Shown here: positions 10,043 through 26,772 of the stretch, piece by piece | Layout of the letters: each line of letters begins with the position of its first letter | How positions within the stretch are numbered: position 1 is the first letter of the stretch | Assembly (NCBI GenBank): GCA_023271515.1 | Contig: JALPXQ010000008.1 | Location: 1-26,772, forward strand | Direction of reading: 5' to 3' | Origin: Dehalococcoidia bacterium | GTDB taxonomy: Bacteria; Chloroflexota; Dehalococcoidia; SZUA-161; SpSt-899 | Length of the DNA: 26,772 nucleotides | Position numbers and translations under genes: made by a program | Notes under the pieces: model-generated | Databases searched by the model: none | The model's input: only the letters and a program-made list of their open reading frames with translations | What the model was told of the DNA's origin: nothing

Positions 10043-11653
10043 CTACCCCCTGCCCTCATTTACAACCTCATCTATCATCTCAAGAATCGCTCTCTCTTTC
10101 CTTTCAATCTCCTCCTTCTCGGCCTTCTTCCGTCGGCGGCGAAAAGAAACGCCTGCTGATGCAGAGATAAGGCCCAGGACAAGAAGAAATGCTCCCATGT
10201 AGATATGATTGTTGTTGATCGTCGGTGCAAAGTCTTCATGGTTGACCACGCCGTCCCGATCCACATCTAAGGCAAGCGATTTTGCGGTTGCGGCCAGTTC
10301 TACCGCTCTTTCATACTCTCTATCATCAAATGCGCTCTCAGCCTGAGAAAGCGAGCTTTCGGCCTCCACAACATCGAAACCTTTTGCCCTTTCCTGAGAG
10401 ATTACCTGCCTTGCTTCTTCGATAGAGCTTCTTGCCAGTCTCAGTTCTCTGGTAATTTCTTCCGCTTTTGCCTTTGCCTGCCGGGCAAGGCTTATGGCTC
10501 CTCCAAAATCCCCTCCTGCAAGTGTCTCCTCAGCCTGCGAAAGTACACCCTCCGCCTCGGTCATATCGAGTCGTTTGTCTATCCCCTCCTCGATTGCATC
10601 CCTGGCCTGGTTGATCGCATCAAGCGCTGCCTGAGCTTCCCCTTTTACCTCTCGTGCGGTAACCTCTGCCTGCTGGGCAAGGCTCATGGCTTCTCCATAA
10701 TCCCCTCCTGCAAGCGCCCTCTCGGCCTGCCGCAGGAGATCCTCAGCCTCAGCCATATCGAGCCCTTCGGCTCTGCCTGTTGTTATTGCCTCCTTTGCTT
10801 GCTCGATCTGCTCCAGTGCCGCTGCCCTTCTAATCCCTTCTACCTTAGCCTCTGCCTGCTGGGCAAGGCTTATGGCTTGTTCAAAATCCCCTCCTGCAAG
10901 TGCCCGCTCGGCCTGCCGAAGGAGACGCTCGGCGTCTGTCATATCAAGCCCTTCGGCTGTTCTGGCTTCGATTACTTCTCTTGCTTTGTCGATCTCTTCA
11001 ATCGCTGCTTCAGCATCCTCTTTAATGCCTTCTGCTTTAGTCTTTGCCTGCTCAGCAAGGCTTACGGCTCTTTCAAAATCGTCTGCTGCAAGCGCCCTCT
11101 CGGCCTGCCGGAGGATATCCTCAGCTTCAGCCATGTTGAGCCCTTCGGCTCTCCCGGCTTCGATTGCCTCCCTTGCCTGGGCGATGGCATTGATGGCAAA
11201 TTGAGGCATGGGGATTTCAACAAGGTTATGGTGGATGATCTGCGCGGCATGCTGGACTATTATCCGCGGCCGCACCCTATCGGCGAGGATAGAAACCTCG
11301 CCCGGGACTTGAATAAGGTTATGGTGGATGATCTGCGCGGCATGCTGGATTATAATGCGGGGCATCACCTCACCTGCGAGGCTCACCAGGGTCTCCGCAG
11401 GCTCCACAAGGTCAAATTCTTGCACGCTGTCGGCGTCTTCCACGACAATCTCAGGGCCGCTTGCGGCATGCACCCTGGAATTTACCGCCAGATATGCCGA
11501 TACGGCCAGCACCAACGCGGCCAGAATCAAGACCATCAGGGGGATTCTCCCCCTGAAACCCCCTGAAGAGCGGTCATCCTTAGGATTTTTAAAGGAGCTT
11601 CGCTCCTTTATTCTCCAGGGCGGTTTACACTGGTTTATCCTTATCCTGAACAA
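10043..11653 (-). CDS. Type-I membrane surface protein, paralog of 8554-9735. It has a signal anchor, a 2x 31-aa tandem repeat and 5 helical repeats of about 37 aa. It ends with a DxDGVVN motif, a TM helix and the conserved tail.
   Basis: The C-terminus [72 protein letters not shown] is nearly identical to the upstream paralog at the DNA level. It contains repeats of the form [32 protein letters not shown]. The true start may be the internal Met near 11536 (MVLILAALVLAVSAYLA). Confidence 0.7.
   Translation of the reverse strand: MFRIRINQCKPPWRIKERSSFKNPKDDRSSGGFRGRIPLMVLILAALVLAVSAYLAVNSRVHAASGPEIVVEDADSVQEFDLVEPAETLVSLAGEVMPRIIIQHAAQIIHHNLIQVPGEVSILADRVRPRIIVQHAAQIIHHNLVEIPMPQFAINAIAQAREAIEAGRAEGLNMAEAEDILRQAERALAADDFERAVSLAEQAKTKAEGIKEDAEAAIEEIDKAREVIEARTAEGLDMTDAERLLRQAERALAGGDFEQAISLAQQAEAKVEGIRRAAALEQIEQAKEAITTGRAEGLDMAEAEDLLRQAERALAGGDYGEAMSLAQQAEVTAREVKGEAQAALDAINQARDAIEEGIDKRLDMTEAEGVLSQAEETLAGGDFGGAISLARQAKAKAEEITRELRLARSSIEEARQVISQERAKGFDVVEAESSLSQAESAFDDREYERAVELAATAKSLALDVDRDGVVNHEDFAPTINNNHIYMGAFLLVLGLISASAGVSFRRRRKKAEKEEIERKERAILEMIDEVVNEGRG
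11222..11407. repeat. 93-bp tandem direct repeat (2 copies) within surface protein gene 10043-11653.
   Basis: aaggttatggtggatgatctgcgcggcatgctgga occurs at 11222 and 11315. It encodes the duplicated 31-aa segment PRIIIQHAAQIIHHNL. Confidence 0.8.
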
Positions 11654-11814
11654 AGGTTCACCTCCCGTCGCGAGCGCATGCCCGAGATGGCAATCATGCC
11701 TTGTCCATCAGTCTAAAGGGTGGAGCAAAGACCAGGTTCATCCCTCTCGGTAGACAAGGACGATAGCAAATGATCCTGCCCACACCCTCGCGATTTGGTG
11801 GAACACATCTGGCC

Positions 11815-15500: not shown

Positions 15501-15631
15501 CGGGTCGTCACAGTAAGATCAGGGAGTCCAGCGCTGGCTATCGCGGTGGGTACTGTCAAAGCGCTCGCGCTGAACAGCAGCAGGGTGGTCATAAGGATGG
15601 CGAAAATGCTGAGAGTAGTTCTCTTTTGCAT
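12596..15631 (-). CDS. Large surface adhesin-like protein of 1011 aa. It has a signal peptide, a CARDB-like domain, 2 identical Ig-like repeats of 123 aa, a central domain of unknown function, a PKD domain and a C-terminal TM anchor preceded by 3x IGERLL.
   Basis: The N-terminal signal is followed by a CARDB-like segment (PDLTVTTRVTFDPAEVAHGDEISVAFTVKNRGDAASG). The PKD motif is ITFDASGSSDPDGEIISYEWDFGDGTTGTG...GDYMVTLTIADNDG. The C-terminus is PWIAAGIAALGLIVLLIKRRAA. There is an AGGAGG Shine-Dalgarno site upstream of ATG 15631. Confidence 0.8.
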   Translation of the reverse strand: MQKRTTLSIFAILMTTLLLFSASALTVPTAIASAGLPDLTVTTRVTFDPAEVAHGDEISVAFTVKNRGDAASGSFHLRVSLSTRRWGTRHGLGNFPVASLGPGASRTLTITTNAIPSAVPAPGDYYVTVFVDGFKQVTESNENNNIGSSTPSRLRLLAAPPPAPTITSAHPSPSTATAGETITIAYNVANPGPTRTVLLGASIQLPGRSPLSDPANDRQVAIVSGSSTVQRSFVMPTDAPPGRYNLLVSLVEDVNNNGRIDAGDRHLASRTFTGALQVTPPAPPPDPTITSAHPSPSTAAAGETITITYNVANPGPTRTVLLGASIQLPGRSPLSDPANDRQVAIVSGSSTVQRSFVMPTDAPPGRYNLLVSLVEDVNNNGRIDAGDRHLASRTFTEALEVTPPALPYKTAFFKISGDDWRIRGSAPIYVDEEKRIVELTVHNSLDMWVEFKPRFIREDVTLESIDGFMEHLQKESFGNYFRLVPPKGSVTYTVKLNTLLPGDILEVEMAIVHVAIAMELLSAALGVFGVPAEPKFALQLYIEFEDHEHLKEVVEYIQSRTLLQMGQLVLTPRTIVFCPEGREVVLNSLPPLLLDIAKSDTVREYGKGWVIDRLLAPINLIRAAGNTLVSLGIGVYQDFWRGNPIIGFALVTFISEDVTLSMDIIGEGTVNKPGDTIFPRGELKQVEIRAYPAPGWKFVGWKGDVGTIADVHAPVTTIRMDSHKNIAAHFIRREFLNILPADLRVVAFASPGELRVYDSQGRVTGLVDGVVKEEIPYSMYDTENKIVTIFAPTGIYYLEVAGIEEATYRLTTISSVEGQIESFAITDVPTTETTTHRFVIDTEVPVQAGVTMKTDADGDGVFEEQRMLQQPIASFAYSPEEMIVDQPITFDASGSSDPDGEIISYEWDFGDGTTGTGRVIEHSFSVAGDYMVTLTIADNDGVINSFSTIVEVVLPQAPDIGERLLDIGERLLRIGERLLAQLIQLVQANPWIAAGIAALGLIVLLIKRRAA
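14400..15137. repeat. Perfect tandem duplication, 2 copies of 369 bp differing by a few SNPs, inside adhesin gene 12596-15631.
   Basis: The block starting near 14421 (ggcggggtgacttctagtgcc...) recurs at 14790. The two ORF-track antisense ORFs 14304-14756 and 14763-15125 are near-identical. The duplication encodes a duplicated Ig-like module of 123 aa. Confidence 0.9.
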
Positions 15632-15752: not shown

Positions 15753-17009
15753 TCAGCCTACCTTATATTCCCTGGCAGCCTCTATCAACTCCCTGAACAT
15801 CTCACCCTCTCCCGTTCCGCTTAATTCTTTGACTGCTTTTGGATACCAAGAAGCAAGCACAGTCTTCTTCCCTTTCAACACCTGGTCGAAGTCTTCCATC
15901 GTTATCTCTCTCCTGGGGGTCATCTCTTTGATCCTCTCCCCCAGGGGAATCATTGCCGCCTTCTCACAGATATCTGCGATCTCAGCGCTGGCATATCCCT
16001 CGGTGATCTCTGCCAGTCTCTGCAGACTGACTGATCTGGAGACAGGCTTATTCTTCAGATTTATCTCCAGGATTTTTTTGCGAGCCTCAATATCGGGATG
16101 GGGGAGGAAAACCGTTGTATCGAACCTCCCTGACCTTCTCAAAGCAACATCAACAGCCCAGGGGCGATTGGTAGCTGCAAGAACAAGATAGCGTTTAGTT
16201 GTGCCTTTCGCTTCCAGACCATCCATCTGTGATAACAGCTCGCTTACCAGGCTTCTCTCGTGCCCCTCCATTGACCCGGAGCGCTCCCCTGCCAGGGAGT
16301 CGAACTCATCGAAGAATAACATTGCCTTTTCATAGCTTCTGGCAACGTTGAAGATTTCCTTGATGTTTTTCTCGCTTTCTCCTACGTATTTGTCCTTGAT
16401 ATCGCTGCCTTTTAGACTGACGAAGGCTGCATCGGATTCGGCCGCCGCCGCCGCCGCGAGCATCGTTTTTCCGCATCCCGGAGGACCGTATAAGAGAATC
16501 CCCCCACCCGGTTTAACCCCAAAGTACTCGTACTCCTCCGGGTACTTGAAGGGATAAACAATTGCCTCCTTGATGTTCTCCTTTACTCTGGCTAAACCGG
16601 CGATATCGCTGAATCTTATCTTCGGTTTTTCCGCCAGGATCAGACCTTTAACCCTCTCCCCTGTCTTTTCTTTCTCTATCCTCCCCCCGGGTGTCTTTTT
16701 AACCCCTTCCTCCGGTGGTATCATGCCATCCGTATATACTTTAACAGTCCCTTCTTTGAGCCCCTCGGCGATCTCCCTGAATTTCTTGGATCTGTCCAGC
16801 AGCTCTTTTCGCTTATCCCTCGGTGACATATCTGCAAGATGCTCCAGGAATTTAGCGCACTTTAAGTACTCCACACTGGCTTTCGCCATGCTGCCTTCAT
16901 CATAGTGCCTCCTGGCCAGATTAAGGGATTTCTTATACTCGGCTTGGACCGCATCTCTCAGCTCCATACTTATTCCCTCCATAGTCGGGTTATCGGGTTC
17001 AGGGTTCAC
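15753..17009 (-). CDS. vps4: MIT-domain AAA+ ATPase, Vps4/CdvC-like (copy 2). The likely true start is ATG 16967 (MELRD...).
   Basis: It has an MIT-like N-terminus. It has Walker A GPPGCGKT, Walker B LFFDEFD, RSGRFDT and a Vps4-like C-terminus. The ORF-track start 17009 is GTG. An internal ATG at 16967 is preceded by GGAGGGA with a 6 nt spacer. Confidence 0.85.
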   Translation of the reverse strand: MNPEPDNPTMEGISMELRDAVQAEYKKSLNLARRHYDEGSMAKASVEYLKCAKFLEHLADMSPRDKRKELLDRSKKFREIAEGLKEGTVKVYTDGMIPPEEGVKKTPGGRIEKEKTGERVKGLILAEKPKIRFSDIAGLARVKENIKEAIVYPFKYPEEYEYFGVKPGGGILLYGPPGCGKTMLAAAAAAESDAAFVSLKGSDIKDKYVGESEKNIKEIFNVARSYEKAMLFFDEFDSLAGERSGSMEGHERSLVSELLSQMDGLEAKGTTKRYLVLAATNRPWAVDVALRRSGRFDTTVFLPHPDIEARKKILEINLKNKPVSRSVSLQRLAEITEGYASAEIADICEKAAMIPLGERIKEMTPRREITMEDFDQVLKGKKTVLASWYPKAVKELSGTGEGEMFRELIEAAREYKVG

Positions 17010-17106
17010 GGGTCACGGTTGATGGTTCACGGTTCATGGTTATTTGTCTAACCGTTCAATCTTGATCGCTCTAACCTTGAACCGTGAACCCCGGCAACTT
17101 TGAATC
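16987..17106. repeat. GGTTCA-rich inverted-repeat intergenic element (copy B), in the 5' region of the Vps4-like copy 2 gene.
   Basis: The sequence is gggttatcgggttcagggttcacgggtcacggttgatggttcacggttcatgg...taaccgttcaatcttgatcg...cttgaaccgtgaacc. The arms GGTTCACGGTTCA and TGAACCGTGAACC form a dyad. Confidence 0.7.
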
Positions 17107-17113
17107 TAAGCAG

Positions 17114-17743
17114 CTACAGCGTCTCTAACTCTTCTTCCTCCCTCTCTCTGGCAACTCTCTCTTTTAGCAGCCTCTCAGCTATCTGCTCAGCTTCGGCTTC
17201 ATTTGCCGTTTCCAAGACGTCCATGTATCTCTTTATCTCTTCGTCCTCCTTGGGTTTGGCAAGTAAGCCCAATTCTCCATCTAACATCTCAAGTAAGTTG
17301 TCCACATTCCCTTTCGCTATCTCATTCTGCAGGTTCACTTGTGCCAGAAACTTTTCCAGCTTACTCGCCGGTAGTTTGGTCAGCTTGGTCATTATGCCCT
17401 TATGTGCCAGCAACTCTTGGCTCTCCTGGGTGAAAACCAGATTGTCCACTACTCGAAGTTGGTCGTTGATGTTCTTCAGATACTTGTCGTCGAGTGCCAT
17501 CTCGCGCTCCAAACGCAGCATCTGCCTTGCAGTGCTCCTTTTCTTCGCCTCGCTGCTTTCTCCCGAGCCTTGTTTTATTAGCGCCCTGAACTGCTGAGAC
17601 GCCTTGTCAACCTTTGCTATCCTCAGCTTCTCTTCCCTTTCCAGCCTGATCCTTTCGGCTATCAGGTCATCCTTCTTCAGCTTCTCGAAGGGGTTTCCCT
17701 TTATTTTGTCCAGAATTCCCATTGTGTTTGCCTCCTTTTTCAT
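17114..17743 (-). CDS. ESCRT-III/Snf7-like protein (copy 2). The likely true start is ATG 17722 (MGILDKIKG...).
   Basis: An internal start MGILDKIKG mirrors MGILKKLKG of copy 1 and has an AAGGAGG Shine-Dalgarno site 8 nt upstream. It is all helical with an acidic C-terminus (AREREEEELETL). It lies directly upstream of Vps4-like copy 2. Confidence 0.6.
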   Translation of the reverse strand: MKKEANTMGILDKIKGNPFEKLKKDDLIAERIRLEREEKLRIAKVDKASQQFRALIKQGSGESSEAKKRSTARQMLRLEREMALDDKYLKNINDQLRVVDNLVFTQESQELLAHKGIMTKLTKLPASKLEKFLAQVNLQNEIAKGNVDNLLEMLDGELGLLAKPKEDEEIKRYMDVLETANEAEAEQIAERLLKERVAREREEEELETL

Positions 17744-17771: not shown

Positions 17772-17879
17772 GCTAGTCAGGTTGTCAGGTTCACGGTTCA
17801 TGGTAGTTTGTCTAACCGTTCAATCTTGATCGGTTGATCGGTGTAACCTTGAACCTCGGAACTTTGAACCTGACTAGTC
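17772..17879. repeat. GGTTCA inverted-repeat element (copy C1), flanked by a perfect 12-nt inverted repeat gctagtcaggtt / aacctgactagc.
   Basis: It has the same core as copy B (caggttgtcaggttcacggttca...tctaaccgttcaatcttgatcgg...taaccttgaacctcggaactttgaacctga). It lies upstream of the ESCRT-III-like copy 2 gene. Confidence 0.7.
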
Positions 17880-17925
17880 TTTGCTGCCTACATTTCATTC
17901 TTTCCTGTGACTTCTCACCTCCTTT

Positions 17926-17997
17926 CAGGTTGTCAGGTTCACGGTTCAATCTTGATCGGGCTAACCTTGAATCGTGAACCCCGGAACTTTGAACCTG
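17926..17997. repeat. GGTTCA inverted-repeat element (copy C2).
   Basis: The sequence is caggttgtcaggttcacggttcaatcttgatcgggctaaccttgaatcgtgaaccccggaactttgaacctg. It is a direct repeat of the C1 core 147 bp downstream. Confidence 0.7.
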
Positions 17998-18002
17998 AGT
18001 AC

Positions 18003-18295
18003 TTAGCATTGACTTAGCATATTCTCGATGGCAATGCGCTCTTTCTCAAGGAGACCCAATGCTTCATACTCCCCAGCCCATATCATTGCCTCCTGATCGT
18101 CTCCATCAAGACCCTTCTCGAATTTCTTGAGAAATTCTTTGCTGCTCATTCCTGTACTCTGCTCAAAATCTCTCAGCTTCTTCCTTGTGGTAGAGATGCT
18201 CCTATCCAGCAAGAGCTTTTCTCTTTTAAGCGATGCTTCCAACACGCCAACCGCTGTCACAACATCTGGAACCTCAAGCTTTATCACACCCATAT
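18003..18295 (-). CDS. Small hypothetical protein of about 96 aa, the last gene of the six-gene operon.
   Basis: There is a GGAGGT Shine-Dalgarno site 6 nt upstream of ATG 18295 (MGVIKLEVPD...). It lies downstream of 18356-19978. The longer ORF-track start at 18359 is unlikely because it overlaps the upstream gene. Confidence 0.45.
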
Positions 18296-18355
18296 AATTA
18301 CCTCCTACTACCCTCATTTCATCTCCACCTGGTATGTAAGGATTCCCCAAAATTC

Positions 18356-19978
18356 TCACCTCAAATAGCCCCGCTCGAGTCTAACCGTATCTCCAACATC
18401 CACCCCCAGTATATCTCTCACCATCCTGTTGACCTTGATCACATCTCGATCACCGTCATCCAGCGGGCGAACGGTTACAAGATGTTCCCTGCCGGAAAAG
18501 ACAATTCTTGCCCGATCAATCCCTTGCAGACCCAGCCGTTCCATTATCTCTGGGTGAACCCGCACGACATTGCCGTATCTATCCTTCGGATGTGGATGGG
18601 TTACCCGCAGCAGTATCTCAACTGACTGGCTGCAAATTGTCTCCACCATATTGATTGGAATGCCGGTTTCAATTGATAATGCAAAGATCTCTTTTCTCAG
18701 TTGATCTCCCTTCACACCAGCCAACCGCTCCTGCATTTTCCTCAATTCTTCCGGTGCTATGTCAAATCTCTCCGATAGGCTCTTGCTATCTTTCCCTGTA
18801 ATCTTTTCAACGCCATCAGAGGTTTGGGATATGGTTTCAAGATCAGACAGGCTGTCCAGTAATTGTTGCATATGATTTCTCAACCCGGGAAGCTCTGTTT
18901 TCGCCATCGCCACATTCAAGATATCCCTTGCTCTTGCATAATGACGCAAGGACGCATCATCATCCCCGGTATGCCGCAGAAGGTCTGCAAGCAGCATCTC
19001 CTCATAGCCACCAAGTATCGTGCTGAGTGCATCTATCCCCGTTGCGATTTCGGTCTTACCTATCTTCTCAAAGTACAACCTGCTCGCCTCAAATGATGAT
19101 CTTGCCTGGCTGATCTCTGATTGTAGTAGAGATAGGTGATCATCATTGTGGCTTAACATCAGATGCATCAGTTGTGTCAGGTGGGCCCAGCCATTACAGA
19201 ACCTGCTGCTTGTAAATAACCCCTCCCTTGTCTCTTCCGAATCTGCATGGAGAGCTGCTTCATAATACATCTTTGCTGCCGCAAGGAAACGGTGCTTGGC
19301 AGCACGGTAATCCCCTTCTCTGTATGATGCTGCCCCCTCCTGCTCGTTATGGATTGCCATCTCGAGCGGCCTCTTTGTCTCAACGATCTCCTTTGCAGGT
19401 GTAACTATTATGTGGCGACCGATAGGTACTCGGAGGTAATCTTCAAAAGCCAGTCCGTACCTCTCCTCCAGGTAATCTCTCATTCCCTTTGGCAACTGAC
19501 CGAATACCGCATTCTTAGCGATCGGATCCATTGGGACCTGTTCACCAGTTGACTGCTGCAGCTCGATATACACGTGCTCTGGAAGGATCACAAAGATGGG
19601 TTCAAATCCGATGGAGCCGAGCATCGCGGCAAGCAGGATCGCCTGGTCATCACAATCCCCGGCGCTGACCTCCAGTGTCGCCACCGCCGGCTGGAAGTGA
19701 TCACCGGGCGGATCATTGATATACTCAATGTTGTCTCGCACCCAGAGAAAGATCGCCTCAGCCACCTTATTGCGATCCGCATCACTCATCCTCTTGACAT
19801 CAAGCGGCGCATCATAAATCTTCTTCACCACCTCGTATGCCGTCTTCCTTACAACAGGTTCTCGTGAGCCCCTTTTTGCCTGCTCAATCATCTCGGCTAC
19901 CTTCAGTATTTTCCTTGACGGCATAAAATTGAGGGAGCCGCAAGAGGTATCACCCGGGGATACTTTCCCATCTCTCAT
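18356..19978 (-). CDS. Transglutaminase-like cysteine protease domain protein. It has a central TPR-like helical region and a C-terminal Cdc48/VAT-N-like double-psi barrel segment.
   Basis: The transglutaminase-like core motif is SAGDCDDQAILLAAMLGSIGFEPIFV, with downstream His and Asp. The C-terminus NVVRVHPEIMERLGLQGIDRARIVFSGREHLVTVRPLDDGDRDVIKVNRMVRDILGVDVGDTVRLE resembles the Cdc48 N-domain. Confidence 0.6.
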   Translation of the reverse strand: MRDGKVSPGDTSCGSLNFMPSRKILKVAEMIEQAKRGSREPVVRKTAYEVVKKIYDAPLDVKRMSDADRNKVAEAIFLWVRDNIEYINDPPGDHFQPAVATLEVSAGDCDDQAILLAAMLGSIGFEPIFVILPEHVYIELQQSTGEQVPMDPIAKNAVFGQLPKGMRDYLEERYGLAFEDYLRVPIGRHIIVTPAKEIVETKRPLEMAIHNEQEGAASYREGDYRAAKHRFLAAAKMYYEAALHADSEETREGLFTSSRFCNGWAHLTQLMHLMLSHNDDHLSLLQSEISQARSSFEASRLYFEKIGKTEIATGIDALSTILGGYEEMLLADLLRHTGDDDASLRHYARARDILNVAMAKTELPGLRNHMQQLLDSLSDLETISQTSDGVEKITGKDSKSLSERFDIAPEELRKMQERLAGVKGDQLRKEIFALSIETGIPINMVETICSQSVEILLRVTHPHPKDRYGNVVRVHPEIMERLGLQGIDRARIVFSGREHLVTVRPLDDGDRDVIKVNRMVRDILGVDVGDTVRLERGYLR

Positions 19979-19990
19979 TTCATAATCCCC

Positions 19991-20227
19991 CTATTTCTTG
20001 TCCACCCTCGAGCCTATTTTGTATAAGATTGCGGCGAGAACGCCGCTGGCTAAGGCGCCGCCCACGGGGCCGCCTATGGCACTACCCAACGTCAAGCCGA
20101 GAGCGGTTCCAGTGGTCATACCAGCAACCTCAAAAAAGCCGTCAAACTCCTCTGGCTCGCCTTCAACATACCTATACTCAACAGCCTTAACCCATTCTAA
20201 ATGCTGATATATTATCTCGCTGTCCAT
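19991..20227 (-). CDS. Small membrane protein of 78 aa with a glycine-zipper TM segment.
   Basis: The C-terminal half is GTALGLTLGSAIGGPVGGALASGVLAAIL, made of GxxxG repeats. It is wedged between the SPFH gene and the transglutaminase-like gene, with a 6 nt gap to the SPFH gene and 12 nt to the transglutaminase-like gene. Confidence 0.5.
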   Translation of the reverse strand: MDSEIIYQHLEWVKAVEYRYVEGEPEEFDGFFEVAGMTTGTALGLTLGSAIGGPVGGALASGVLAAILYKIGSRVDKK

Positions 20228-20233
20228 CGTAAA

Positions 20234-22048
20234 TCACCCCCTATGCGCGATCGTAGCGCCACAATTCGTGCAGAACTTCGTGCCGACAGGCAACTCCACA
20301 TTACATCCGGTGCAGATAACGACCCTCTTTGTTTCCTGAGCCGGCGGTGAGGGTGTTCCACCTATTATTACCGGTTGCCCCTGTTGTCCGCCCGTTACTA
20401 CGGTTGTCCCTCCTGTCTGTGCTCGCGTAGAAGCTGTGGTCCCCATCTGTTCCAGTGCCTTTGCCGCCAGGCGCTCGATTCTATCTCCGCCTTTATCTGC
20501 CATCTCCTGTATTGTCTTAAGCATCTTATCCCTATCGCCAAGGCGATCCTCGTAAATGCTCATAATCTCCTCGGCACTCTTCGACTTATATCTCTCCTTG
20601 AATGCTTCAGCTATGGCAGCGCTGTCCCTCGCTCCAAGGGCAAGTATCTGCTCGTCTGTAAGGCCGGTGGCTAACTTCATTCTTGCCAGTTCGGTGAGGT
20701 GCTCTGCCTGTTTGCTCTCCACCATAGAAATGAGAGCCTCATCCGAAGCCGCAGAACGCACCTTAAGCCGCTGTTCCTCAAGCTCGGCTTCTTTCTGCAT
20801 CCGCTCAATCTCAAGTTTCTGATAGCCGGCCACATCCTCTCTTTTTGCTGCTTTCAAATCTCTCAGAGCTTTCAATCCCATATCCAGTTCTTCTCGATCT
20901 TGCTCCATCTCTAGCTCATGCGACTTTCGCCCCATCTCCAGTTCATGCAAACGCCGTTCAGCATCCATATCCAGCGCGTGTCTCTGTTCAACTCGTTTCA
21001 GCATCAAATCCCGTGCAAAGGCTCGATCCTGGCGATTCTCCTCAAATATTTGTTTGAGTTCAACCATCTCGTTCTCTTGAATGACCTTGCTCCTGTCGAG
21101 CTCGTGCAAGAACTTTTCAAGGTCTTCTGCATTCTGGAGTTCATTGATCTTATCAGCAGTGAGCCTTGCACGCATCCTCCTTGTGAGATCAAGCCGCCTA
21201 TCCGCAAGAGTTTCTCGCTCTTCATCCCTGGCGTATTCACCTCGCTCTCTGCGTATGGCTTCCCAGTAGCTTTCATCATAGTCGAAATATGAAAGATACA
21301 CCAGGTTAAGCCCGTTTCGACTGAGCGTTGTATCCAGGTGATGCCTGAAATCCTGCTCGATCTCCTTTTTCAATTCGAGATTGCCATACAACTCCTCGAA
21401 CGAATACTGCTTGATCTTTGATTGCAGTATATTCAGCAGCTCACTCCTCAACATCGCTTCAATATCTGTTATCAGTATCTCCTCTTTGGTTTTCATGAGG
21501 TTCTGGAAGAACAGTATCGGCTCCTCGATGTTCAGAACGACTTTCCCTCTCACCCCGGCATCGAAGTTCTCTCTTGTTCTCAGACCACCGATATTGAAAT
21601 TGAGTCCAACATCGGCGTCATCCACTAATATTATAGTTGCCCTCTCTGCCAGATTGAGATTCTTTATCATCGAGATAAGCCCCCCTACATTGTATCTCCC
21701 GGGCGGCAATTCCCCAAAGAACCTTCCTTCCTGCAAGACTATCGCCTTCGTTCCTGAGGTGATAGTTATGTTCTTGCTGAAGATCCCTTTGATGTCGCTG
21801 ACCTCCAATCTGCGCGCAAAGTCATTGGGACCTCTTTGCCAGGTGCTTATTTTGCCGGGGTCTTCCCTCTTTTCTACGAACTGGCTGCTCGCACCACAAC
21901 CGGGGCAGAACTTATATTCCGGCTCTATTGACCTGCCGCAGTTGCTGCAAACCGATTCAGAGAAGAGAGGGCTTCCACATTGCGAGCAGAATCTGCTCTT
22001 GGGATCACTCCTTACTCCACACTTGCTGCACGTTATTTTTTCAAACAT
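20234..22048 (-). CDS. Zinc-ribbon / SPFH (band-7/flotillin-like) / long coiled-coil / zinc-ribbon protein of 604 aa.
   Basis: The N-terminus has four CxxCG pairs (CSKCG, CSQCG, CSNCG, CPGCG). There is an SPFH-like segment (AIVLQEGRFFGELPPGRYNV...ILITDIEAMLRSELLNILQSKIKQYSFEELYGN). A coiled coil of about 250 aa is rich in E, R and A. The C-terminus is CTGCNVELPVGTKFCTNCG. There is a GGAGGA Shine-Dalgarno site 6 nt upstream of the ATG. Confidence 0.65.
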   Translation of the reverse strand: MFEKITCSKCGVRSDPKSRFCSQCGSPLFSESVCSNCGRSIEPEYKFCPGCGASSQFVEKREDPGKISTWQRGPNDFARRLEVSDIKGIFSKNITITSGTKAIVLQEGRFFGELPPGRYNVGGLISMIKNLNLAERATIILVDDADVGLNFNIGGLRTRENFDAGVRGKVVLNIEEPILFFQNLMKTKEEILITDIEAMLRSELLNILQSKIKQYSFEELYGNLELKKEIEQDFRHHLDTTLSRNGLNLVYLSYFDYDESYWEAIRRERGEYARDEERETLADRRLDLTRRMRARLTADKINELQNAEDLEKFLHELDRSKVIQENEMVELKQIFEENRQDRAFARDLMLKRVEQRHALDMDAERRLHELEMGRKSHELEMEQDREELDMGLKALRDLKAAKREDVAGYQKLEIERMQKEAELEEQRLKVRSAASDEALISMVESKQAEHLTELARMKLATGLTDEQILALGARDSAAIAEAFKERYKSKSAEEIMSIYEDRLGDRDKMLKTIQEMADKGGDRIERLAAKALEQMGTTASTRAQTGGTTVVTGGQQGQPVIIGGTPSPPAQETKRVVICTGCNVELPVGTKFCTNCGATIAHRG

Positions 22049-22136
22049 TTTCTATCCTCCTTCTTCTAGGTTCTACGTTGTCTGGTCACTGCCGACCTCT
22101 GACTTCTCACCTGTCACTTCTGACCTCTGTACACGC

Positions 22137-23297
22137 TTACTTTAGTTTTCCCCCACAAAAGGGGCAGGCGATCCACTCCGCTTCTACCTTCTGACCGCAT
22201 TGGGAGCACTTCAATTCAAGTTCGGTCCCGCAGAACGGACACATGCGCCACCCTTCTTGTAGTTTATTGTTGCATTTTGCACACCTCCTTTCAACATCAC
22301 TAGCATCTGCCCCACCACCTATCTCACTGCGCTGAACTATACTATCGCTCACCTCAATGCTTCTACCCTTCGTTGATGAGTCACCTGTCTTGCCAGTTTC
22401 CGCTGCGCCAACTGTGCTTCTTTGAATTACGCTATCTTTGATCTGCGTTGCTCCAGAAGATACAACTTCGCCGATTGACCCTATATCAACCTTTGTTACC
22501 GTTTTATCGGCCTCCATTACCTGAACTAAAAAATCCTTTTCGGCATGGTATTTTACTCCATTTACATCAATGCAGACCACATCCAAATTCAGGCTTACAA
22601 AACCACTTTCTCGTGTTCTTAGAACCGGCTGGATAACCACACTCTGGTTCGGCCTCAGGAACTCGGTGCAGACCAGTGTCTTATCCAGTTCAAACTTTGA
22701 ATTCTCTTTCAATGAGACGGTTATGCTTGCGATGTTTTCTTTGCTTATATTTTTGAAAATACAATCCAACGGCTTCCACTGCTCCTGTATCATTTCTTGT
22801 GCCTTCAGCTGGATACTCAGCGGACTGACATACACCTCCATCTCGTTCGAAAGCAGATCATCGAGTGAAAACTTGTTCTCGATCTCGCAGACTGCTCGTG
22901 TTGAAAAATGGCCGCCGGTATTGGCCCGGATTCGGTATTGATATTCTTTCTCTTCGCCCGGAGCTAGTTGGCATACCATATCAGGCATGTCCCCAATCAA
23001 CTCGAATTGTGGAGGGATTTCATCTGTGACAATGCAGTCTAACAGACCTGCTCGGCGCCGGCTTTGAAGTTTTATCGTTATAGTTATTGCCTCTCCGATT
23101 TCAATATATTTGTTTGAGCACACCTTGGAAAATGAAAGAATAGAGTCATCTCCCGATATCTTTGCGATCCCCTTTTGAATACCACTCACAACTGCGTCAA
23201 CTTTTGCTTTTTGGGTTGCGTCCTGAATCTTCTCTTTTATTCCGCTTGCATCTATTCTATCCTTCACTATCCTGGAGAAGTCTTTAATGTCCTTCAT
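22137..23297 (-). CDS. Protein with an N-terminal helical segment, beta-rich Ig-like middle domains and a C-terminal double zinc ribbon.
   Basis: The C-terminus is CAKCNNK...CPFCGTEL...CSQCGQK...CPFCGGKL. There is a GGAGGTGGAG Shine-Dalgarno site upstream of ATG 23297. The start overlaps the stop of the upstream gene (ATAATG). Confidence 0.55.
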   Translation of the reverse strand: MKDIKDFSRIVKDRIDASGIKEKIQDATQKAKVDAVVSGIQKGIAKISGDDSILSFSKVCSNKYIEIGEAITITIKLQSRRRAGLLDCIVTDEIPPQFELIGDMPDMVCQLAPGEEKEYQYRIRANTGGHFSTRAVCEIENKFSLDDLLSNEMEVYVSPLSIQLKAQEMIQEQWKPLDCIFKNISKENIASITVSLKENSKFELDKTLVCTEFLRPNQSVVIQPVLRTRESGFVSLNLDVVCIDVNGVKYHAEKDFLVQVMEADKTVTKVDIGSIGEVVSSGATQIKDSVIQRSTVGAAETGKTGDSSTKGRSIEVSDSIVQRSEIGGGADASDVERRCAKCNNKLQEGWRMCPFCGTELELKCSQCGQKVEAEWIACPFCGGKLK

Positions 23298-24871
23298 TAT
23301 CTCTCCACCTCCATCATACCTTTAATGATTGCGAATTCCTTCTCCGAGATCCTTTCTCTAATTCTCAGTGTGTCGGCCCCATTGGCGATAACAGAACGCT
23401 TGCGCGAAGAAGAACCAAGAATAGAATTACTGGATATGTGTCCCAGAAGCGCTAATTCAAGTTCCCGATCACTCATCAACCTGTTTGTCAGATTCTCCGT
23501 GAATAGAGCATCAAGCCCTTCCCGATGATCCCCCCCGCTGAATTTTGCAAGCAAGGATGAAGCAAGTGATTTCGACTCCTCTGTGACAGAGTTTGGTGGA
23601 AATATCATGAATCTCTGCGTTCCTGCTTTTTCATCCTTGAAAAGAGCAACGAAAGCTGGAATATATACCAAAAAGGAGCCCTGAGCATCTTCGGCCACGC
23701 CGGGTAAGGGCAGGCTGATACTTAATTCATTTATCCTGTCAGTCAGTGCGTTCTTTGCATTTATGATGTATGCCTCTTTAGCAGCCATGAATCTCTCGAG
23801 CAGACGCTCGACACTTTGCATCTTCTCCTTGAATTCATACCTGATGCTCTCTGTCTCATTGTCGAAATTCTCCACTTGCTCATCCAGAGCCAGCAGTTGA
23901 TTATGTAGTTCTGTTCTACGGTTTGCGGCTCTCTCTTTGATTTCTCTGATAGCCTTGTCTATATCCACCAACTGATTCTTACATTCGGTGATAGAGTCTT
24001 TAAGCCGTTCCACTTCACCGGAAGTGCTGGAGAGTTGTTTATTTAGCTGCTGAATCTTGTGTTCTACGGTCTTCCGGCGACCCATACGATCAGAGAGCAA
24101 ATTCTCCTCATCTTCGTCGTTATCCCTTTTCAATTGCTTTATCTCGGCCGCCTTTATCTTAAACGCATCTATCATCTCTCTCCGTTTCTTGTTCCTCATC
24201 ACCATCGTCTTTTCACATTCTTCGGAGAGATTTGCTATCAATAACTGGCTTCTTTGTGTTATTAGTTCCTGAATATCATCCAGGTGAGATGGCAAACTGG
24301 ACAATTTGTCCTCCTCGCACTCCAGCATCTGATGAATCTCTTCAACCTCCTTATTTTGCTCGAAGCTATCGGTGTCGAATAAGAAAACATCTGTGCTTTC
24401 CGTTTCAAAGACGGAGCCCAAAAGCTCCCTTAAATCGTCCAGAGCTTGTTTGCCAGGCAGCGACTCGAATGCTCGTGTATGCTCTTTAACCTCTGCAATC
24501 GATGCGACCAGTGTGGAAAGTCCCCTTATGAACTCATCATAGTCGGTCTCTGCTCGAGCGAATGTTTTCTCCAGAGATTCTAGATCGTGCACCACAATCT
24601 CCGGGAAGGATAAGATCTTCTTTTGTGCCAAAGCCTCATGCAAGATCACTATACCCCGTCCCCGGCGAGCATAAAAAGATATAAGAACGGGGATAGCCAA
24701 CTCTGCTATCCCCCTCACAATCTCCGCCGACTTCTTAAAGAGCCCACCACCCTTTTTGCTCCGGTGCACATTCAGCACCAACCTGGGCAGATATTCCGCT
24801 TCCGGCATCCTGCTTCCACTTGATATTGCAAAGTGAACTGACTTCATGTTTCCCCCTCTTATCAGGTTCAA
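23297..24871 (-). CDS. Coiled-coil protein of unknown function, the first gene of the six-gene operon. The likely true start is ATG 24847 (MKSVHF...).
   Basis: It is a 524 aa ORF with a long central coiled coil (residues about 200-380) and a C-terminal globular part. The ORF-track start 24871 is TTG. An internal ATG at 24847 has a G-rich Shine-Dalgarno site. Confidence 0.5.
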   Translation of the reverse strand: MNLIRGGNMKSVHFAISSGSRMPEAEYLPRLVLNVHRSKKGGGLFKKSAEIVRGIAELAIPVLISFYARRGRGIVILHEALAQKKILSFPEIVVHDLESLEKTFARAETDYDEFIRGLSTLVASIAEVKEHTRAFESLPGKQALDDLRELLGSVFETESTDVFLFDTDSFEQNKEVEEIHQMLECEEDKLSSLPSHLDDIQELITQRSQLLIANLSEECEKTMVMRNKKRREMIDAFKIKAAEIKQLKRDNDEDEENLLSDRMGRRKTVEHKIQQLNKQLSSTSGEVERLKDSITECKNQLVDIDKAIREIKERAANRRTELHNQLLALDEQVENFDNETESIRYEFKEKMQSVERLLERFMAAKEAYIINAKNALTDRINELSISLPLPGVAEDAQGSFLVYIPAFVALFKDEKAGTQRFMIFPPNSVTEESKSLASSLLAKFSGGDHREGLDALFTENLTNRLMSDRELELALLGHISSNSILGSSSRKRSVIANGADTLRIRERISEKEFAIIKGMMEVER

Positions 24872-24908
24872 GGCTCAGGGGTTCACGGTTCAAGGGTTCC
24901 CCTGAGGG
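24864..24908. repeat. GGTTCA-type element (copy D) with a hairpin ctcagggg...cccctgag, in the 5' leader of the six-gene operon.
   Basis: The sequence is caggttcaaggctcaggggttcacggttcaagggttcccctgagg. Confidence 0.55.
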
Positions 24909-25085: not shown

Positions 25086-26772
25086 TCATTTCATCAGCAC
25101 CCGCTTTGTAAGGGTTTCTATCTCTCTAATATGCTCTTCTTCGCCTGGTTCAATGCCCTTTTTCTGCCGGTGGTATATTCCTTGGATTACATTCTCGATC
25201 TGTGCCTTGTCTTCCTCTTTTGCGTAGCCTTTCAGAGCCGAGAGATTCTTCAACATCTCAGTGTAATCGCCATATTTCGCAGCAAGCAGAACCAGGTCAG
25301 CACAGAAGAGCCTTGATTTTGTGAGATCGCCACTTGAGGAGCTTTTTTTCAGTGATTCGGTCAGTTGGACTTTCAAATACCCGGCAAGTGCTCTCTGGAG
25401 CTCGGCAGCGCTTTGATAGCGATCCTCTTTCCTCTTCTGGAGGCACTTCATAATAATCGGCTCAACATCTTTTGCCCGCGGGTTTATCTCGGAAGGCAGA
25501 TCAGGCTCCTCGCCTACTATTGCACTGCTGATCTCCATAATAGAATCGCCCTCAAATGGCAGCCTGCCGGTTACAAGCTCATAGAAGATCACTCCCACTT
25601 GATAGTTATCAGTCCTTGGGTCAGGTCGGCCGAACTGCTTCGGGGCAACCTGTTCCGGGGTTGCATACAGGGGTGAAAAGCCTGTTATGCTCGATGATTT
25701 GCTCTCTGCCACTACTTTGCTGAGTCCCCAGTCTGAGATTTTGGGGGTTAAATCCCCGGTGAGCAAGACGTTCTGCGGCTTTAAGTCTCGATGGATAACC
25801 CCTTTATCGTGCGCATATTTCAACCCCGAGAGGATTTCAAAGATGATCCTGGCTGCCTCTTCGGCCTCCACCGGCTTGCTCAATGCTTCAAGGTTCCCCT
25901 TGTCTGCATACTCCATCTCGAAATATGGGATAGGCATTATGTTTACATCGTACAGTTGGATGATGTTCTCGTGCCTTAGCTCTTCCCATGCCTTGATCTC
26001 CTTGAGGAAGCTTCTGCCAGTCGCCTCGTCCAGGCTCAGGGGGACCTTCAGCGCTACGGTTCTGCCGTCGCTTACCCTCTTTGCCCGGAAAACCCTCGCA
26101 AAGCCACCCTTGCTGATGTATTTCACATCCCTGTATTTAGGCTGAAGCTCTGCCGGGAAGGTGGAGGGGGTTGTTGGACGGGGGGTAAACTCTGCCGGTC
26201 TTATCTCTTCTATAGTTTCAGCTTCCCCAACACTCAGGATGAACTCATTTGTGGTATCGTATGCCTCGCCATCCAGGTCTTCATATCTTATATCAACCTC
26301 CAGAGGAATCTCTCCCGCATTCTTTGGCATGAGCATAATACCCAATCGCTGCTCATCTCCGATATTAAGGTTCAATTCCCTCAATCCCTTGACCTCTACT
26401 TCCTTTGAGAAGCTTAAGCTTATCGCTTTTGCATGTGCAGTCCCCGTATTCTTCAGGAGTATATCTACCTTCTCCCAGTAATTTGGTCTGAAGTTATGCT
26501 TTGTCAGGTGTAATGTAATCTCAGGCCTTGCGCCCGCTTTTAATGTTTTTGATTGCTCTATGGCATTCTTTGCAATAGTGATCCCCTCTTTATAATTGCC
26601 GGCAGAAACTGCTGATCTTGCTTGGTTCAATAGCTCTTCAGCTTCTGTAACCTCGCAGCCAAGCCTCTTTGCATCCCCTATCGCCGATTCTGCGGATTTT
26701 ATCTGGTTGTTTAGCTCATTGAAATCGGTCAATCTTCCTTCGATCCGTTCATTCGCTTCTTTTGCAATAGTG
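25086..26772 (-). CDS. Hanks-type Ser/Thr protein kinase paralog. Its N-terminus has a helical repeat and an Ig/CARDB-like beta-sandwich. The 5' end runs off the window.
   Basis: Kinase motifs are KGGFARVF, VALK, HRDLKPQNVLL, DWGLSK and YATPEQ. The C-terminal tail motif EDRYQS..EL is shared with kinase 1. The reading frame is open to the window end (TIAKEANERIEG... upstream of the annotated start). Confidence 0.85.
   Translation of the reverse strand, partial: TIAKEANERIEGRLTDFNELNNQIKSAESAIGDAKRLGCEVTEAEELLNQARSAVSAGNYKEGITIAKNAIEQSKTLKAGARPEITLHLTKHNFRPNYWEKVDILLKNTGTAHAKAISLSFSKEVEVKGLRELNLNIGDEQRLGIMLMPKNAGEIPLEVDIRYEDLDGEAYDTTNEFILSVGEAETIEEIRPAEFTPRPTTPSTFPAELQPKYRDVKYISKGGFARVFRAKRVSDGRTVALKVPLSLDEATGRSFLKEIKAWEELRHENIIQLYDVNIMPIPYFEMEYADKGNLEALSKPVEAEEAARIIFEILSGLKYAHDKGVIHRDLKPQNVLLTGDLTPKISDWGLSKVVAESKSSSITGFSPLYATPEQVAPKQFGRPDPRTDNYQVGVIFYELVTGRLPFEGDSIMEISSAIVGEEPDLPSEINPRAKDVEPIIMKCLQKRKEDRYQSAAELQRALAGYLKVQLTESLKKSSSSGDLTKSRLFCADLVLLAAKYGDYTEMLKNLSALKGYAKEEDKAQIENVIQGIYHRQKKGIEPGEEEHIREIETLTKRVLMK

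Follow-up and report, generated by a model that had tools for sequence, protein, structure and literature searches.

Closest described systems

To our knowledge, non-Asgard archaeal ESCRT systems have been characterised by comparative genomics alone, and how they handle their cargo is unknown. A named relative of the locus described here is the 'Meth_adaptin' ESCRT neighbourhood, known from Methanosalsum, Methanococcoides and Methanohalophilus, in which an SPFH-coiled-coil-Zn-ribbon protein (arCOG15283), an Ig-like Zn-ribbon protein and a coiled-coil protein are encoded beside ESCRT-III and Vps4; its appendage-like proteins, of which one bears a Zn ribbon, combine an Ig-like domain with a TBP-like platform (arCOG15284; Makarova et al. 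2024, mBio; PMC10936438). The window, the stretch of 26,772 nucleotides analysed as a whole, contains six genes (g1–g6) followed by E3b and V4b. The initial annotation could match this operon to no named system, but since g1–g3 match the Meth_adaptin architecture, such a relative does exist: an SPFH/coiled-coil/zinc-ribbon protein, an Ig-like Zn-ribbon protein extended at its N-terminus and a coiled-coil protein are common to both, and in both a gene in the ESCRT-III position is followed by a Vps4-like ATPase. The likeness of g3 is one of architecture, arCOG15283 and arCOG15284 having been compared by description only.

The two loci also differ in several respects. Meth_adaptin includes ProX and a GOLD-domain appendage protein, neither of which was seen in the scanned ORFs of the window. 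Its appendage protein has a TBP platform, whereas g2 contains two beta-sandwiches and lacks the TBP-like platform of the adaptin appendage; its coiled-coil protein carries a C-terminal wHTH, which was not detected at the C-terminus of g1; and its ESCRT-III belongs to the Snf7 family, whereas E3b gave no Snf7 signal. The g4–g5 peptidase pair is previously undescribed in archaeal ESCRT accessory sets. It is absent from the Meth_adaptin description, the text of which contains none of the words 'protease', 'peptidase' and 'papain' (PMC10936438); within the portions of the supplements that were covered, neither 'Transglut' nor the names Dehalococcoidia, ANME-2 and GoM-Arc1 were found. The locus thereby adds a conserved candidate thiol peptidase and adaptor domains of the eukaryotic-trafficking type to archaeal-type ESCRT, and offers a concrete enzyme that may carry out processing or deconjugation.

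A second comparison is provided by the B. subtilis pspA-ydjGHI (samGHI) system, where the soluble SPFH protein YdjI, which has a C-terminal Zn finger, needs the membrane proteins YdjG/H and recruits PspA (Scholz et al. 2021, PMC8581546). In the window, by contrast, the putative polymer is not PspA and is not demonstrably a member of the ESCRT-III superfamily, and the locus additionally encodes an AAA+ ATPase, a cysteine peptidase, and Ig-like and coiled-coil proteins. The SPFH domain of g3 matches Pfam Band_7; YdjI is a Band_7_1 member, and a separate Band_7_1 gene lies ahead of Snf7 in the related locus L006. HflK/C–FtsH and stomatin–STOPP (NfeD) are established SPFH–protease pairs and share with the window an SPFH scaffold that adjoins a membrane-associated protease, as well as an AAA+ ATPase. 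The protease of the window is however a thiol enzyme of the transglutaminase fold and neither a metallo- nor a serine protease; it is encoded separately from the ATPase, and the SPFH protein lacks its own membrane anchor. Finally, g5 resembles Bro1/ALIX (which works with the deubiquitinase Doa4) and alpha-SNAP (which works with NSF), a resemblance to be read as a lead and not as membership: g5 unites a solenoid with a thiol hydrolase and with a barrel like the one that Cdc48 and NSF carry at their N-terminus. The parallel with Bro1/Doa4 has a counterpart in L003, where g5 is followed by an E1-E2-Ubl-JAB (ubiquitin-like conjugation) operon, whereas the window encodes no ubiquitin-like system.

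Host, gene order and domain content

The initial annotation had assumed an archaeal host, but both the contig and the flanks are Dehalococcoidia, and the host appears to be a Dehalococcoidia MAG. The island is flanked by the bacterial genes mfd and dnaJ-merR-clpB, and its nearest relatives were found in ANME-2/GoM-Arc1 archaeal MAGs. Its content varies between strains, with g1–g5 missing from L122 and g5 truncated at residue 158 in L123, so that the g1–g5 system is dispensable. Both here and in L006, the locus also holds a set of Snf7, Vps4, kinase and phosphatase genes that corresponds to the 'Main' type of ESCRT described previously. According to Makarova et al. (PMC10936438), no ESCRT components can be identified in bacteria, and Ravi et al. 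2024 described only sporadic Vps4-like transfers to bacteria, with Snf7 displaced by an unrelated gene. A Dehalococcoidia lineage with Snf7 and Vps4, kinases, a phosphatase and an accessory operon would represent another archaeal cell-biology machinery in Chloroflexota, for which the archaellum is a precedent (PMC12488501).

The six predicted ORFs were all recovered on the minus strand, together with the proposed junctions: g1 (23297..24847) and g2 (22137..23297) overlap at ATAATG, an 88-nt spacer (22049..22136, minus strand) separates g2 from g3 (20234..22048), and gaps of 6 and 12 nt precede g4 (19991..20227) and g5 (18356..19978), respectively. The g2–g3 spacer, which measures about 20 nt in relatives, contains a GGAGG motif as well as the 12-mer GGTGAGAAGTCA; this 12-mer is also present in the spacer between g6 and E3b. 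Purine-rich Shine-Dalgarno (SD) sites were found ahead of all six starts, although the GGAGG type that had been reported throughout applies to g2, g3 and g6 only, those of g1, g4 and g5 being of a GGGGG type. The start of g1 is most likely ATG 24847, which is preceded by GAGGGGG, and not TTG 24871, which lacks a good SD. Since the junctions are tight and no promoter- or terminator-like sites were found in the intergenic spacers between the operon genes, the arrangement fits a single transcript. The description as a tightly coupled six-gene operon nevertheless holds only for g1–g5, which are conserved, and not for g6, which is missing from relatives including the 93%-identical L042; the unit is therefore better described as five coupled conserved genes and one lineage-specific gene. 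Directly 5' of g1 lies a Ser/Thr kinase gene (STK_up; 25086..26732, minus strand; Pfam Pkinase 1.4e-43), the product of which has a helical and Ig-like region N-terminal to the kinase domain; its position is kept in L006, where the kinase is 46% identical.

The domains initially assigned to g1–g5 were recovered by Pfam, hydrophobicity and structure or profile matches. The 516-aa g1 protein consists of an N-terminal domain of ~95 aa, a coiled coil at ~95–385 and a C-terminal domain of ~135–141 aa. Its matches were of the coiled-coil/SMC/LmuB type only and confined to approximately residues 95–385, while the C-terminal domain gave no Pfam or PDB sequence match. Orthologs are encoded in L006 (73% identity) and in Ca. 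Methanogaster (L015), where g1 overlaps g2 by 4 nt. In g2 (386 aa), an N-terminal helical/disordered region is followed by Ig-like beta-sandwiches at 51–165 and 166–262, a disordered linker and a double zinc ribbon at 338–385. The soluble SPFH protein g3 (604 aa), in which no transmembrane or hydrophobic segment was found, is composed of a double zinc ribbon at 5–54 (DZR, 4e-13), an SPFH/Band_7 domain at 95–271, a charged coiled coil at ~272–520 and a tail in which a G/T/Q-rich linker leads to a C-terminal zinc ribbon at 577–600. Band_7 scored 33.2 bits against a Pfam gathering cut-off of 23.6 and was also found in most orthologs, and all zinc-ribbon cysteines are conserved. The 112 homologs of g3 include some that are 43–47% identical in Methanoregula/Methanomicrobiales, which have no E3b, V4b or g4–g5 neighbours.

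The 78-aa glycine-zipper membrane protein g4 has a conserved acidic stretch of ~35 aa at its N-terminus, followed by a hydrophobic glycine-zipper segment at ~36–70 (the Gly-zipper match being weak); in the rest of the operon, only the buried transglutaminase core of g5 is similarly hydrophobic (KD ≥ 1.6). Among 8 orthologs of g4, 21 positions are invariant. The protein is predicted to be a membrane tether. The 540-aa g5 protein comprises a transglutaminase core at ~68–160, a TPR-like alpha-solenoid at 204–388, a 3-helix unit at 401–452 and a Cdc48-N-type double-psi beta-barrel (DPBB) at 455–536. Transglut_core scored 30.7 bits against a cut-off of 23, and CDC48_N was likewise above its Pfam gathering score. 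The candidate triad of Cys109 (codon 19652–19654), His135 and Asp151 is invariant in 19 sequences at 50–92% identity. Judged by its sequence, g5 belongs to the transglutaminase-like cysteine peptidase superfamily, a fold that was poorly modelled in the predicted structure. The C-terminus matches the DPBB subdomain of the Cdc48/VAT N-domain in both sequence and fold, the best 50 Foldseek matches all being DPBB. No sequence-level Bro1 signal was found in g5, and a Pfam SNAP match in its orthologs stayed below threshold (24.3 bits vs a cut-off of 25).

Co-location of the genes in relatives had been proposed as a check, and the cluster indeed proved conserved, many of them having the gene of a Vps4-like AAA+ ATPase in physical linkage with it. 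The g4–g5 pair forms an invariant unit, with g4 immediately 5' of g5 in every relative, and such an ATPase lies within 10 kb in 10 of the 11 informative contexts. ATPases of the V4b type were found within this distance in the window, L042, L044, L001/L015, L005, L008/L012, L013, L016 and L048, and in L013 and L016 the ATPase gene is immediately 5' of the pair. In L006, the order STK-g1-g2-g3-g4-g5 has been kept and a pair of Snf7 (Pfam 1e-7) and Vps4-type genes lies about 6 kb away, while L003 has g3-g4-g5 and no ATPase within 10 kb.

Downstream in the window, E3b (17114..17722, minus strand), a 202-aa helical protein with an acidic tail, is encoded immediately 5' of the Vps4-like AAA+ ATPase V4b (15753..16967, minus strand), which is the position of ESCRT-III. 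No significant similarity of E3b to Snf7 or PspA was obtained by Pfam, PDB or profile-profile tests. Its family counts 109 representatives, and Snf7 was matched by 1 of 76, at 2.5e-4. By hhalign, E3b aligned with 96.7% probability to the ~200-aa proteins encoded 5' of the V4b-type ATPases of relatives, but with only 3% to the Snf7-type E3a family. Natural SPFH-E3b-like-TIR fusions exist, and in P0182 an SPFH and an E3b-like domain share one protein, a Rosetta-stone fusion. V4b combines an N-terminal helical domain with a single classic AAA+ domain (Pfam AAA 4.5e-39, with AAA_lid_3), for which Cdc48, PAN, CdvC and FtsH models score about equally: the NCBIfam CdvC score of 224.8 bits covers the AAA part only and is comparable to those of PAN and Cdc48. 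An MIT domain, which the Vps4 of Meth_adaptin combines with AAA+, was not detected in V4b by sequence, and weak Vps4_C matches were obtained for its orthologs in L005 and L008. Its ATG at 16967 has the SD GGAGGG, the alternative GTG at 17009 none. Because E3b has no detectable ESCRT-III similarity, the label 'second ESCRT pair' given to these genes is unproven and is based on position and size only.

Possible modes of action

The interpretation that fits best is close to the membrane-scaffold and remodelling role first suggested. We propose tentatively, at somewhat under an even chance, that g1–g5 are a membrane-proximal scaffold and adaptor set that, with E3b/V4b, forms an ATP-driven machine for membrane remodelling or sorting and represents a variant of the Meth_adaptin type. 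This reading is based on the synteny of g4–g5 with V4b, the Meth_adaptin-like architecture, the SPFH-E3b-like fusion P0182 and the precedent of YdjI, together with the active site and domains of g5, the hydrophobicity confined to g4 and an arrangement that fits one transcript. By analogy with B. subtilis YdjI, g3 might assemble beneath the membrane as an SPFH ring or cage and recruit a polymer-forming helical protein, while g4 would tether g5, and perhaps also g3, to the membrane. Through its solenoid and barrel, g5 could dock on the helical polymer and/or the ATPase, or on a ubiquitin-like client, and the client protein might then be cleaved or deconjugated by the thiol active site. In such a machine, g2 and g1 would serve as cargo adaptor and stalk, V4b would recycle the assembly, and the flanking kinases and PP2C could provide regulation. 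Vesicle budding, membrane repair and an antiviral response are candidate outputs.

Several observations speak against remodelling, namely the missing Snf7/PspA signal of E3b and the non-specific AAA scores of V4b, and also the partnerless g3 orthologs, the missing TBP-like platform of g2, the absence of the ATPase from L003 and the strain variation.

Directly after the SPFH gene come those of a small membrane protein and of a peptidase whose catalytic triad is intact, an order that would also suit an SPFH-caged AAA+/protease proteostasis module, which we hold to be unlikely though worth weighing. Here, g3 would form the cage, V4b would be the unfoldase, g5 the peptidase with its Cdc48-N-type barrel binding substrates or adaptors in trans, and g4 the anchor. 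The module would be a split thiol-protease analogue of HflK/C–FtsH or stomatin–STOPP/NfeD, by which membrane proteins are degraded or processed and the membrane is not remodelled. Such SPFH partnerships being established, the classic-clade AAA+ domain of V4b with FtsH, PAN and Cdc48 scores as good as that of CdvC, its place immediately ahead of g4–g5 in L013 and L016, and an E3b unlike ESCRT-III would all agree with this. The module would however leave g1 and g2 without a role, and it does not account for the N-terminal helical domain of V4b, the weak Vps4_C matches of its orthologs or the ~200-aa helical protein that always precedes V4b, as ESCRT-III precedes Vps4. In addition, the operon shares its locus with the 'Main'-type Snf7/Vps4/kinase/phosphatase set in both the window and L006.

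Similarly low in probability is an anti-virus or abortive-infection island, in which infection would be sensed at the membrane and answered by proteolysis or membrane collapse through the SPFH, peptidase, AAA+ and kinase genes. Its distribution is patchy and crosses domains, it differs between closely related strains, and E3b-like domains are fused to TIR with or without SPFH. Toxin-antitoxin modules have repeatedly been inserted among the genes in relatives, and the window has a TumA-like gene, but such modules are abundant throughout these genomes. Similarity to PD-T4-6/mad6 models was seen for the flanking kinases and to IetA/IteA for the AAA+ ATPase, yet these matches are generic and at the level of the fold. 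A search of PADLOC-DB 2.0, a screen for known defence systems having been advised, gave no model match for g2, g3, g4 or g5, only coiled-coil noise for g1 and a candidate family for g6, with no one system matched. Gene order is moreover held at 50–76% protein identity over several family-level lineages, and no full-length relatives were found in 2.9 million viral contigs.

A more far-reaching form of the remodelling interpretation is quite improbable: that g4–g5 constitute a membrane-tethered cysteine peptidase with a Bro1/SNAP-like solenoid and a Cdc48-N-type barrel docking on the polymer or the Vps4-like ATPase, removing a ubiquitin-like or other cargo tag as a prokaryotic Bro1–Doa4 counterpart, and that the whole ESCRT-type island moved between ANME-type archaea and the Dehalococcoidia bacterium to give a working archaeal-style sorting machine. 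Least probable of all is that g1–g5 and E3b/V4b are neighbours by history only, co-transferred on one island with no joint action, as g3 orthologs lacking any partner, the ATPase-free g3-g4-g5 of L003 and the island sub-sets of individual strains might suggest, since the g4–g5/V4b linkage has outlasted rearrangement in about nine lineages, some with the genes directly adjacent in another order, and an SPFH-E3b-like fusion exists.

The g6 gene and the intergenic repeats

The 96-aa g6 protein (18003..18293, minus strand) resembles the antitoxin of the TumE–TumA pair (Durairaj et al. 2023, PMC10584680), and the DNA around the gene is filled with repeats. It matched NCBIfam TumA at 5e-8 and PADLOC PDC-M44A at 8.7e-9, the matched region spanning residues 59–100 in the numbering of the 118-aa GTG-start ORF. 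With 33 bits against a TumA cut-off of 100 and no TumE toxin ORF beside it, g6 fails as a bona fide TumA antitoxin. Alternative starts are found at 18317 and 18359. From the SD-preceded ATG 18293, g6 sits 62 nt after g5, and the overlap between the two genes considered possible at first would arise only from the SD-less GTG 18359. No counterpart was found by tblastn after g5 in any related locus, and in L042 the gap between g5 and E3b is just 189 nt. The g6 gene is a lineage-specific TumA-antitoxin-like fragment or insert outside the conserved unit.

An 84-nt palindromic repeat occurs as a pair between g6 and E3b (17788..17997, minus strand; copies at 17788–17871 and 17914–17997) and once between E3b and V4b (17024–17107). 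Among the loci of relatives, its core was matched only once, at an isolated site in L006, the other 10 having no match. In the window, the core GAACCGTGAACC occurs 10 times against an expected 0.08, and the 84-nt repeats are predicted to form RNA hairpins with dG of -25 to -31 kcal/mol and z-scores of -2.6 to -5.5.

Layout and conservation of the gene cluster

Six open reading frames follow one another on the minus strand of the window (24871-18003), encoding a coiled-coil protein (g1), an Ig-like/zinc-ribbon protein (g2), an SPFH protein (g3), a glycine-zipper protein (g4), a transglutaminase-TPR-DPBB protein (g5) and a TumA-like protein (g6). Read base by base, the junctions were as in the initial annotation, with ATAATG joining g1 to g2 and gaps of 88 nt (g2-g3), 6 nt (g3-g4) and 12 nt (g4-g5). 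The Shine-Dalgarno sites, described there as GGAGG-type throughout, are more broadly purine-rich and lie 5-10 nt 5' of every start, and g1 probably begins at the ATG at 24847, preceded by GAGGGGG, rather than at the TTG at 24871. The suspected overlap of g5 and g6 holds only with a GTG start of g6 that lacks such a site; from the ATG at 18293, which has one, g6 encodes 96 residues and lies 62 nt 3' of g5. Scans for sigma-70 promoters and terminators gave site counts not above those of shuffled sequences and no site inside the spacers between genes, which weakly supports a single shared transcript. An Rfam search of the window returned zero matches.

The g5 protein is rare: 44 proteins turned up in 5.8 billion clusters, a metagenome scan gave 11 full-length loci, and GTDB species genomes gave five. 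In its 20-kb neighbourhoods, examined wherever contigs were long enough, g4 lay directly 5' of g5 in every case, while g3 was usually found a few genes 5' of g4, often with toxin-antitoxin pairs, PQQ or HEAT proteins in between. The same start/stop overlap of g1 and g2 recurred in L123 (from the window's own population), L006 and Ca. Methanogaster, and g1 is 73% identical to its L006 counterpart. An AAA+ ATPase of the type of V4b, the Vps4-like protein encoded 3' of g6, occurred within 10 kb of g4-g5 in nine lineages, immediately 5' of the two genes in L013 and Ca. Argoarchaeum (L016); L006 has in its place a Snf7 and Vps4-type pair approximately 6 kb downstream. No counterpart of g6 was present in any related locus examined, and in L042, whose g5 is 93% identical, E3b, the helical protein paired with V4b, begins 189 nt after g5. 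Given the g4-g5 adjacency, the synteny of g1-g3, the proximity of the ATPase and the missing g6, the conserved unit, as judged from synteny, is g1-g5 with g4-g5 as its core, linked to an ATPase. The genes are thus co-located in relatives, as the proposed six-gene operon demanded, though g6 falls outside the conserved part.

L003 is the one informative exception. There (11750-14827 of L003/L004), g3-g4-g5 run straight into a eukaryote-like ubiquitin set made up of JAB, a ThiF-type E1, an 87-aa ubiquitin-like protein whose internal GG (in the sequence PDPTGG) is followed by eight more residues, and a UQ_con E2; further along, a 626-aa protein gives a weak Prok-RING match. The neighbours of g3 in Methanoregula were considered as E3b-like and rejected, since they do not resemble E3b. 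A virus-borne origin of the cluster was likewise discarded because full-length relatives of g5 or g3 were absent from IMG/VR.

Domain content and likeness to a published system

The domain calls made initially were all borne out. For g1, only coiled-coil-type matches were obtained (about residues 95-385), and searches with its terminal domains matched nothing. The g3 protein has a DZR-Band_7-coiled coil-zinc ribbon architecture and no hydrophobic segment; the sole membrane-type segment is the glycine zipper of g4. In g5, Transglut_core and CDC48_N both scored over their Pfam cut-offs, Cys109, His135 and Asp151 were invariant among 19 sequences, and the protein ends in a double-psi beta-barrel (DPBB) of the Cdc48/VAT type. 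The top 50 Foldseek matches were all DPBB. For the middle domain, sequence searches yielded only TPR repeats, a SNAP match below threshold that covers approximately 60 residues in two of the orthologs, and a weak match (E 0.034) to PDB 2mpk, an entry listed as 'Chitin synthase 1', which we take to be an MIT domain. We call the middle domain a TPR-like solenoid that finds its closest structural analogues among trafficking adaptors; homology to Bro1 is no more than a lead.

The initial annotation matched the cluster to no named system. The architecture of g1-g3, however, is shared with counterparts in the Meth_adaptin ESCRT neighbourhood of Methanosalsum and relatives (Makarova et al. 2024, PMC10936438). 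Besides Vps4 and ESCRT-III, that neighbourhood holds an SPFH protein bearing a coiled coil and a zinc ribbon, 'adaptin appendage' proteins of Ig-like type, of which one has a zinc ribbon, a protein combining a coiled coil and a wHTH, ProX and a GOLD protein. Membership appears only partial: a TBP platform is missing from g2, the window's locus has neither ProX nor GOLD, the wHTH was undetected in g1, and E3b gives no detectable Snf7 signal. The words 'protease', 'peptidase' and 'papain' do not occur in the text of that study, and the portion of its supplement text searched contained neither 'Transglut' nor ANME-2/GoM-Arc1 names. The cluster is real and conserved, and g4-g5 is an undescribed enzyme pair in a variant of a published system type. 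The best experimentally studied analogue is pspA-ydjGHI of B. subtilis.

The E3b/V4b pair and a possible joint mechanism

In the 'second ESCRT pair' of the initial annotation, V4b has one classic-clade AAA+ domain behind an N-terminal helical region, and its orthologs gave weak Vps4_C matches. E3b, approximately 200 residues long, is helical with an acidic tail and belongs to a family with 109 representatives, which is clearly homologous to the approximately 200-aa proteins 5' of the relatives' V4b-type ATPases (hhalign 96.7%). Pfam searches with E3b and 76 family representatives produced a Snf7 match in one of the 76 (2.5e-4), a PDB profile search with E3b found nothing, and hhalign against the family of E3a, the Snf7-type protein of the window's other pair, gave a probability of 3%. 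E3b shows no Snf7/PspA signal; assignment to ESCRT-III was dropped on these results, and the label is unproven at the sequence level. In L042 (BBPD01007153.1, 2072-2644), E3b is 58% identical to that of the window, yet g5, V4b and a surface protein are 90-93% identical; either E3b changes far more rapidly than the genes around it, or it was replaced there.

The analysis shows which domains the proteins contain, the active site of g5, the one membrane segment of the cluster and the linkage of the genes; all interactions in the following joint mechanism are inferred, and we favour it at somewhat less than even odds. The g3 protein would assemble beneath the membrane as an SPFH ring and recruit E3b, while g4 would hold g5 at the membrane; g5 would dock via its solenoid and barrel and cleave or deconjugate a client. 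In this scheme g2 would be an adaptor and g1 a stalk, V4b would recycle the assembly, and kinases and PP2C would regulate it. One member of the E3b family, P0182, carries an N-terminal SPFH domain, and this fusion supports the view that proteins of the g3 and E3b types are physically linked.

The same SPFH protein, thiol-protease-like active site and ATPase could instead make up an SPFH-caged AAA+/thiol-protease proteostasis module; the AAA part of V4b scores alike against CdvC, PAN, Cdc48 and FtsH models, and we consider this module unlikely. A defence island seems equally doubtful. P0182 and a second family member, P0184, fuse the E3b-like domain to a C-terminal TIR, which hints at immune roles in some relatives, and g6, left unplaced initially, is similar to the TumA antitoxin and to PDC-M44A, a PADLOC candidate; it scores well under the curated threshold, however, and has no toxin gene as a neighbour.

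A strain-variable island in a bacterial genome

The initial annotation assumed an archaeal host, and the relatives come from MAGs that bear the names Ca. Ethanoperedens, Ca. Argoarchaeum, Ca. Methanogaster and Methanosarcinales, with GC-consistent labels, so that a misbinned archaeal contig was our first reading. It was rejected because independent assemblies of 16-49 kb connect mfd, dnaJ-merR-clpB and ACD genes with the island, and because three separate studies give these flank genes a Dehalococcoidia label. The g5 protein is identical to MCL0059175.1, from a MAG labelled Dehalococcoidia bacterium. On the 38.5-kb contig L122 (JALPXU010000002.1, another MAG), V4a, the Vps4-type partner of E3a, is identical to that of the window, and the contig runs past the window's left end through intact ACD-alpha, GltD/HdrA-like, HIT, dnaJ-merR-clpB and ERCC4 genes. 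The 16.3-kb contig L123 (JALPXM010000018.1, from a third MAG) has versions of g1-g4 that are 87-98% identical, approximately 5 kb from mfd (TRCF) and NfeD, and the flank genes cluster, at 90% identity or above, with sequences that two other studies likewise label Dehalococcoidia. With these contigs and labels, the island is embedded in a bacterial genome.

The ESCRT-like island spans approximately 23 kb between a radical-SAM/mfd side and an ACD/HdrA-like/dnaJ-merR-clpB side, and its genes have a GC3 of 0.41-0.67 versus 0.70-0.74 in the left-flank metabolic genes. It varies by strain: L122 lacks everything from the repeat protein p536 to g1, keeping only the kinase-PP2C-E3a-V4a part, and L123 has g1-g4 and a g5 truncated at residue 158, with the downstream genes absent. 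We consider it very unlikely that mere co-transfer explains why g1-g5 and the E3b/V4b pair are neighbours. A bacterial host is unexpected for this cluster; sporadic transfers of Vps4-like genes to bacteria have been noted (Ravi et al. 2024), and the Chloroflexota archaellum offers a precedent for archaeal machines in the phylum (PMC12488501). A second bacterial locus joining ESCRT-like with SPFH genes was seen in L010 (GCA_964572825.1, GC 67%, 3700-11731), assigned to a bacterium by its sigma-70 and GGDEF neighbours; it encodes, in this order, a kinase, AAA+, Snf7-like and Vps4-like (47% identical to V4a) proteins, a 150-aa protein and a DZR-SPFH protein (30% identical to g3).

An 84-nt palindromic intergenic repeat, unmatched in Rfam, occurs in three copies (17024-17107, 17788-17871 and 17914-17997) that form strong hairpins (z -5.5, -3.6 and -2.6). 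At 5494-5512, 16996-17035 and 24880-24898, just upstream of E3a, V4b and g1, there is either the repeat core GAACCGTGAACC or a run of heptamers resembling GAACCGT, and GAACCGTGAACC was matched 10 times versus 0.08 expected. A regulatory site common to the system was rejected, as the palindromic repeat is lineage-specific and nearly absent from the relatives' loci (a single isolated match, in L006). The 12-mer GGTGAGAAGTCA was found in the g2-g3 spacer (22100-22111) and the g6-E3b spacer (17908-17919), two matches versus 0.05 expected.

Elsewhere in the window, at 1919-2689 and 2686-3324, an in-frame TAG (2318-2320) splits an enoyl-CoA hydratase gene, and the ACD-alpha (CoA-binding) gene is reduced to a fragment of 117 aa, compared to 471 aa for the intact L122 gene; both could be pseudogenes, assembly errors or cases of stop-codon read-through. 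The proteins p393 and p536 (8554-11653) are arrays of approximately 52- and 62-aa helical repeats, with 156-nt and 186-192-nt periods and DUF4398 and NRBF2_MIT-type matches; the repeat type forms the N-terminus of STK_up, the Ser/Thr kinase 5' of g1, and recurs near g5 in L005, L006, L008, L016, L046 and L050. Finally, the gene at 12596-15631, which encodes a secreted CARDB/PKD protein of 1011 aa anchored at its C-terminus, contains a 300-nt internal duplication (14411-14710 and 14780-15079, 98% identical) and spans a stretch at 13-14 kb where GC falls to 0.40.
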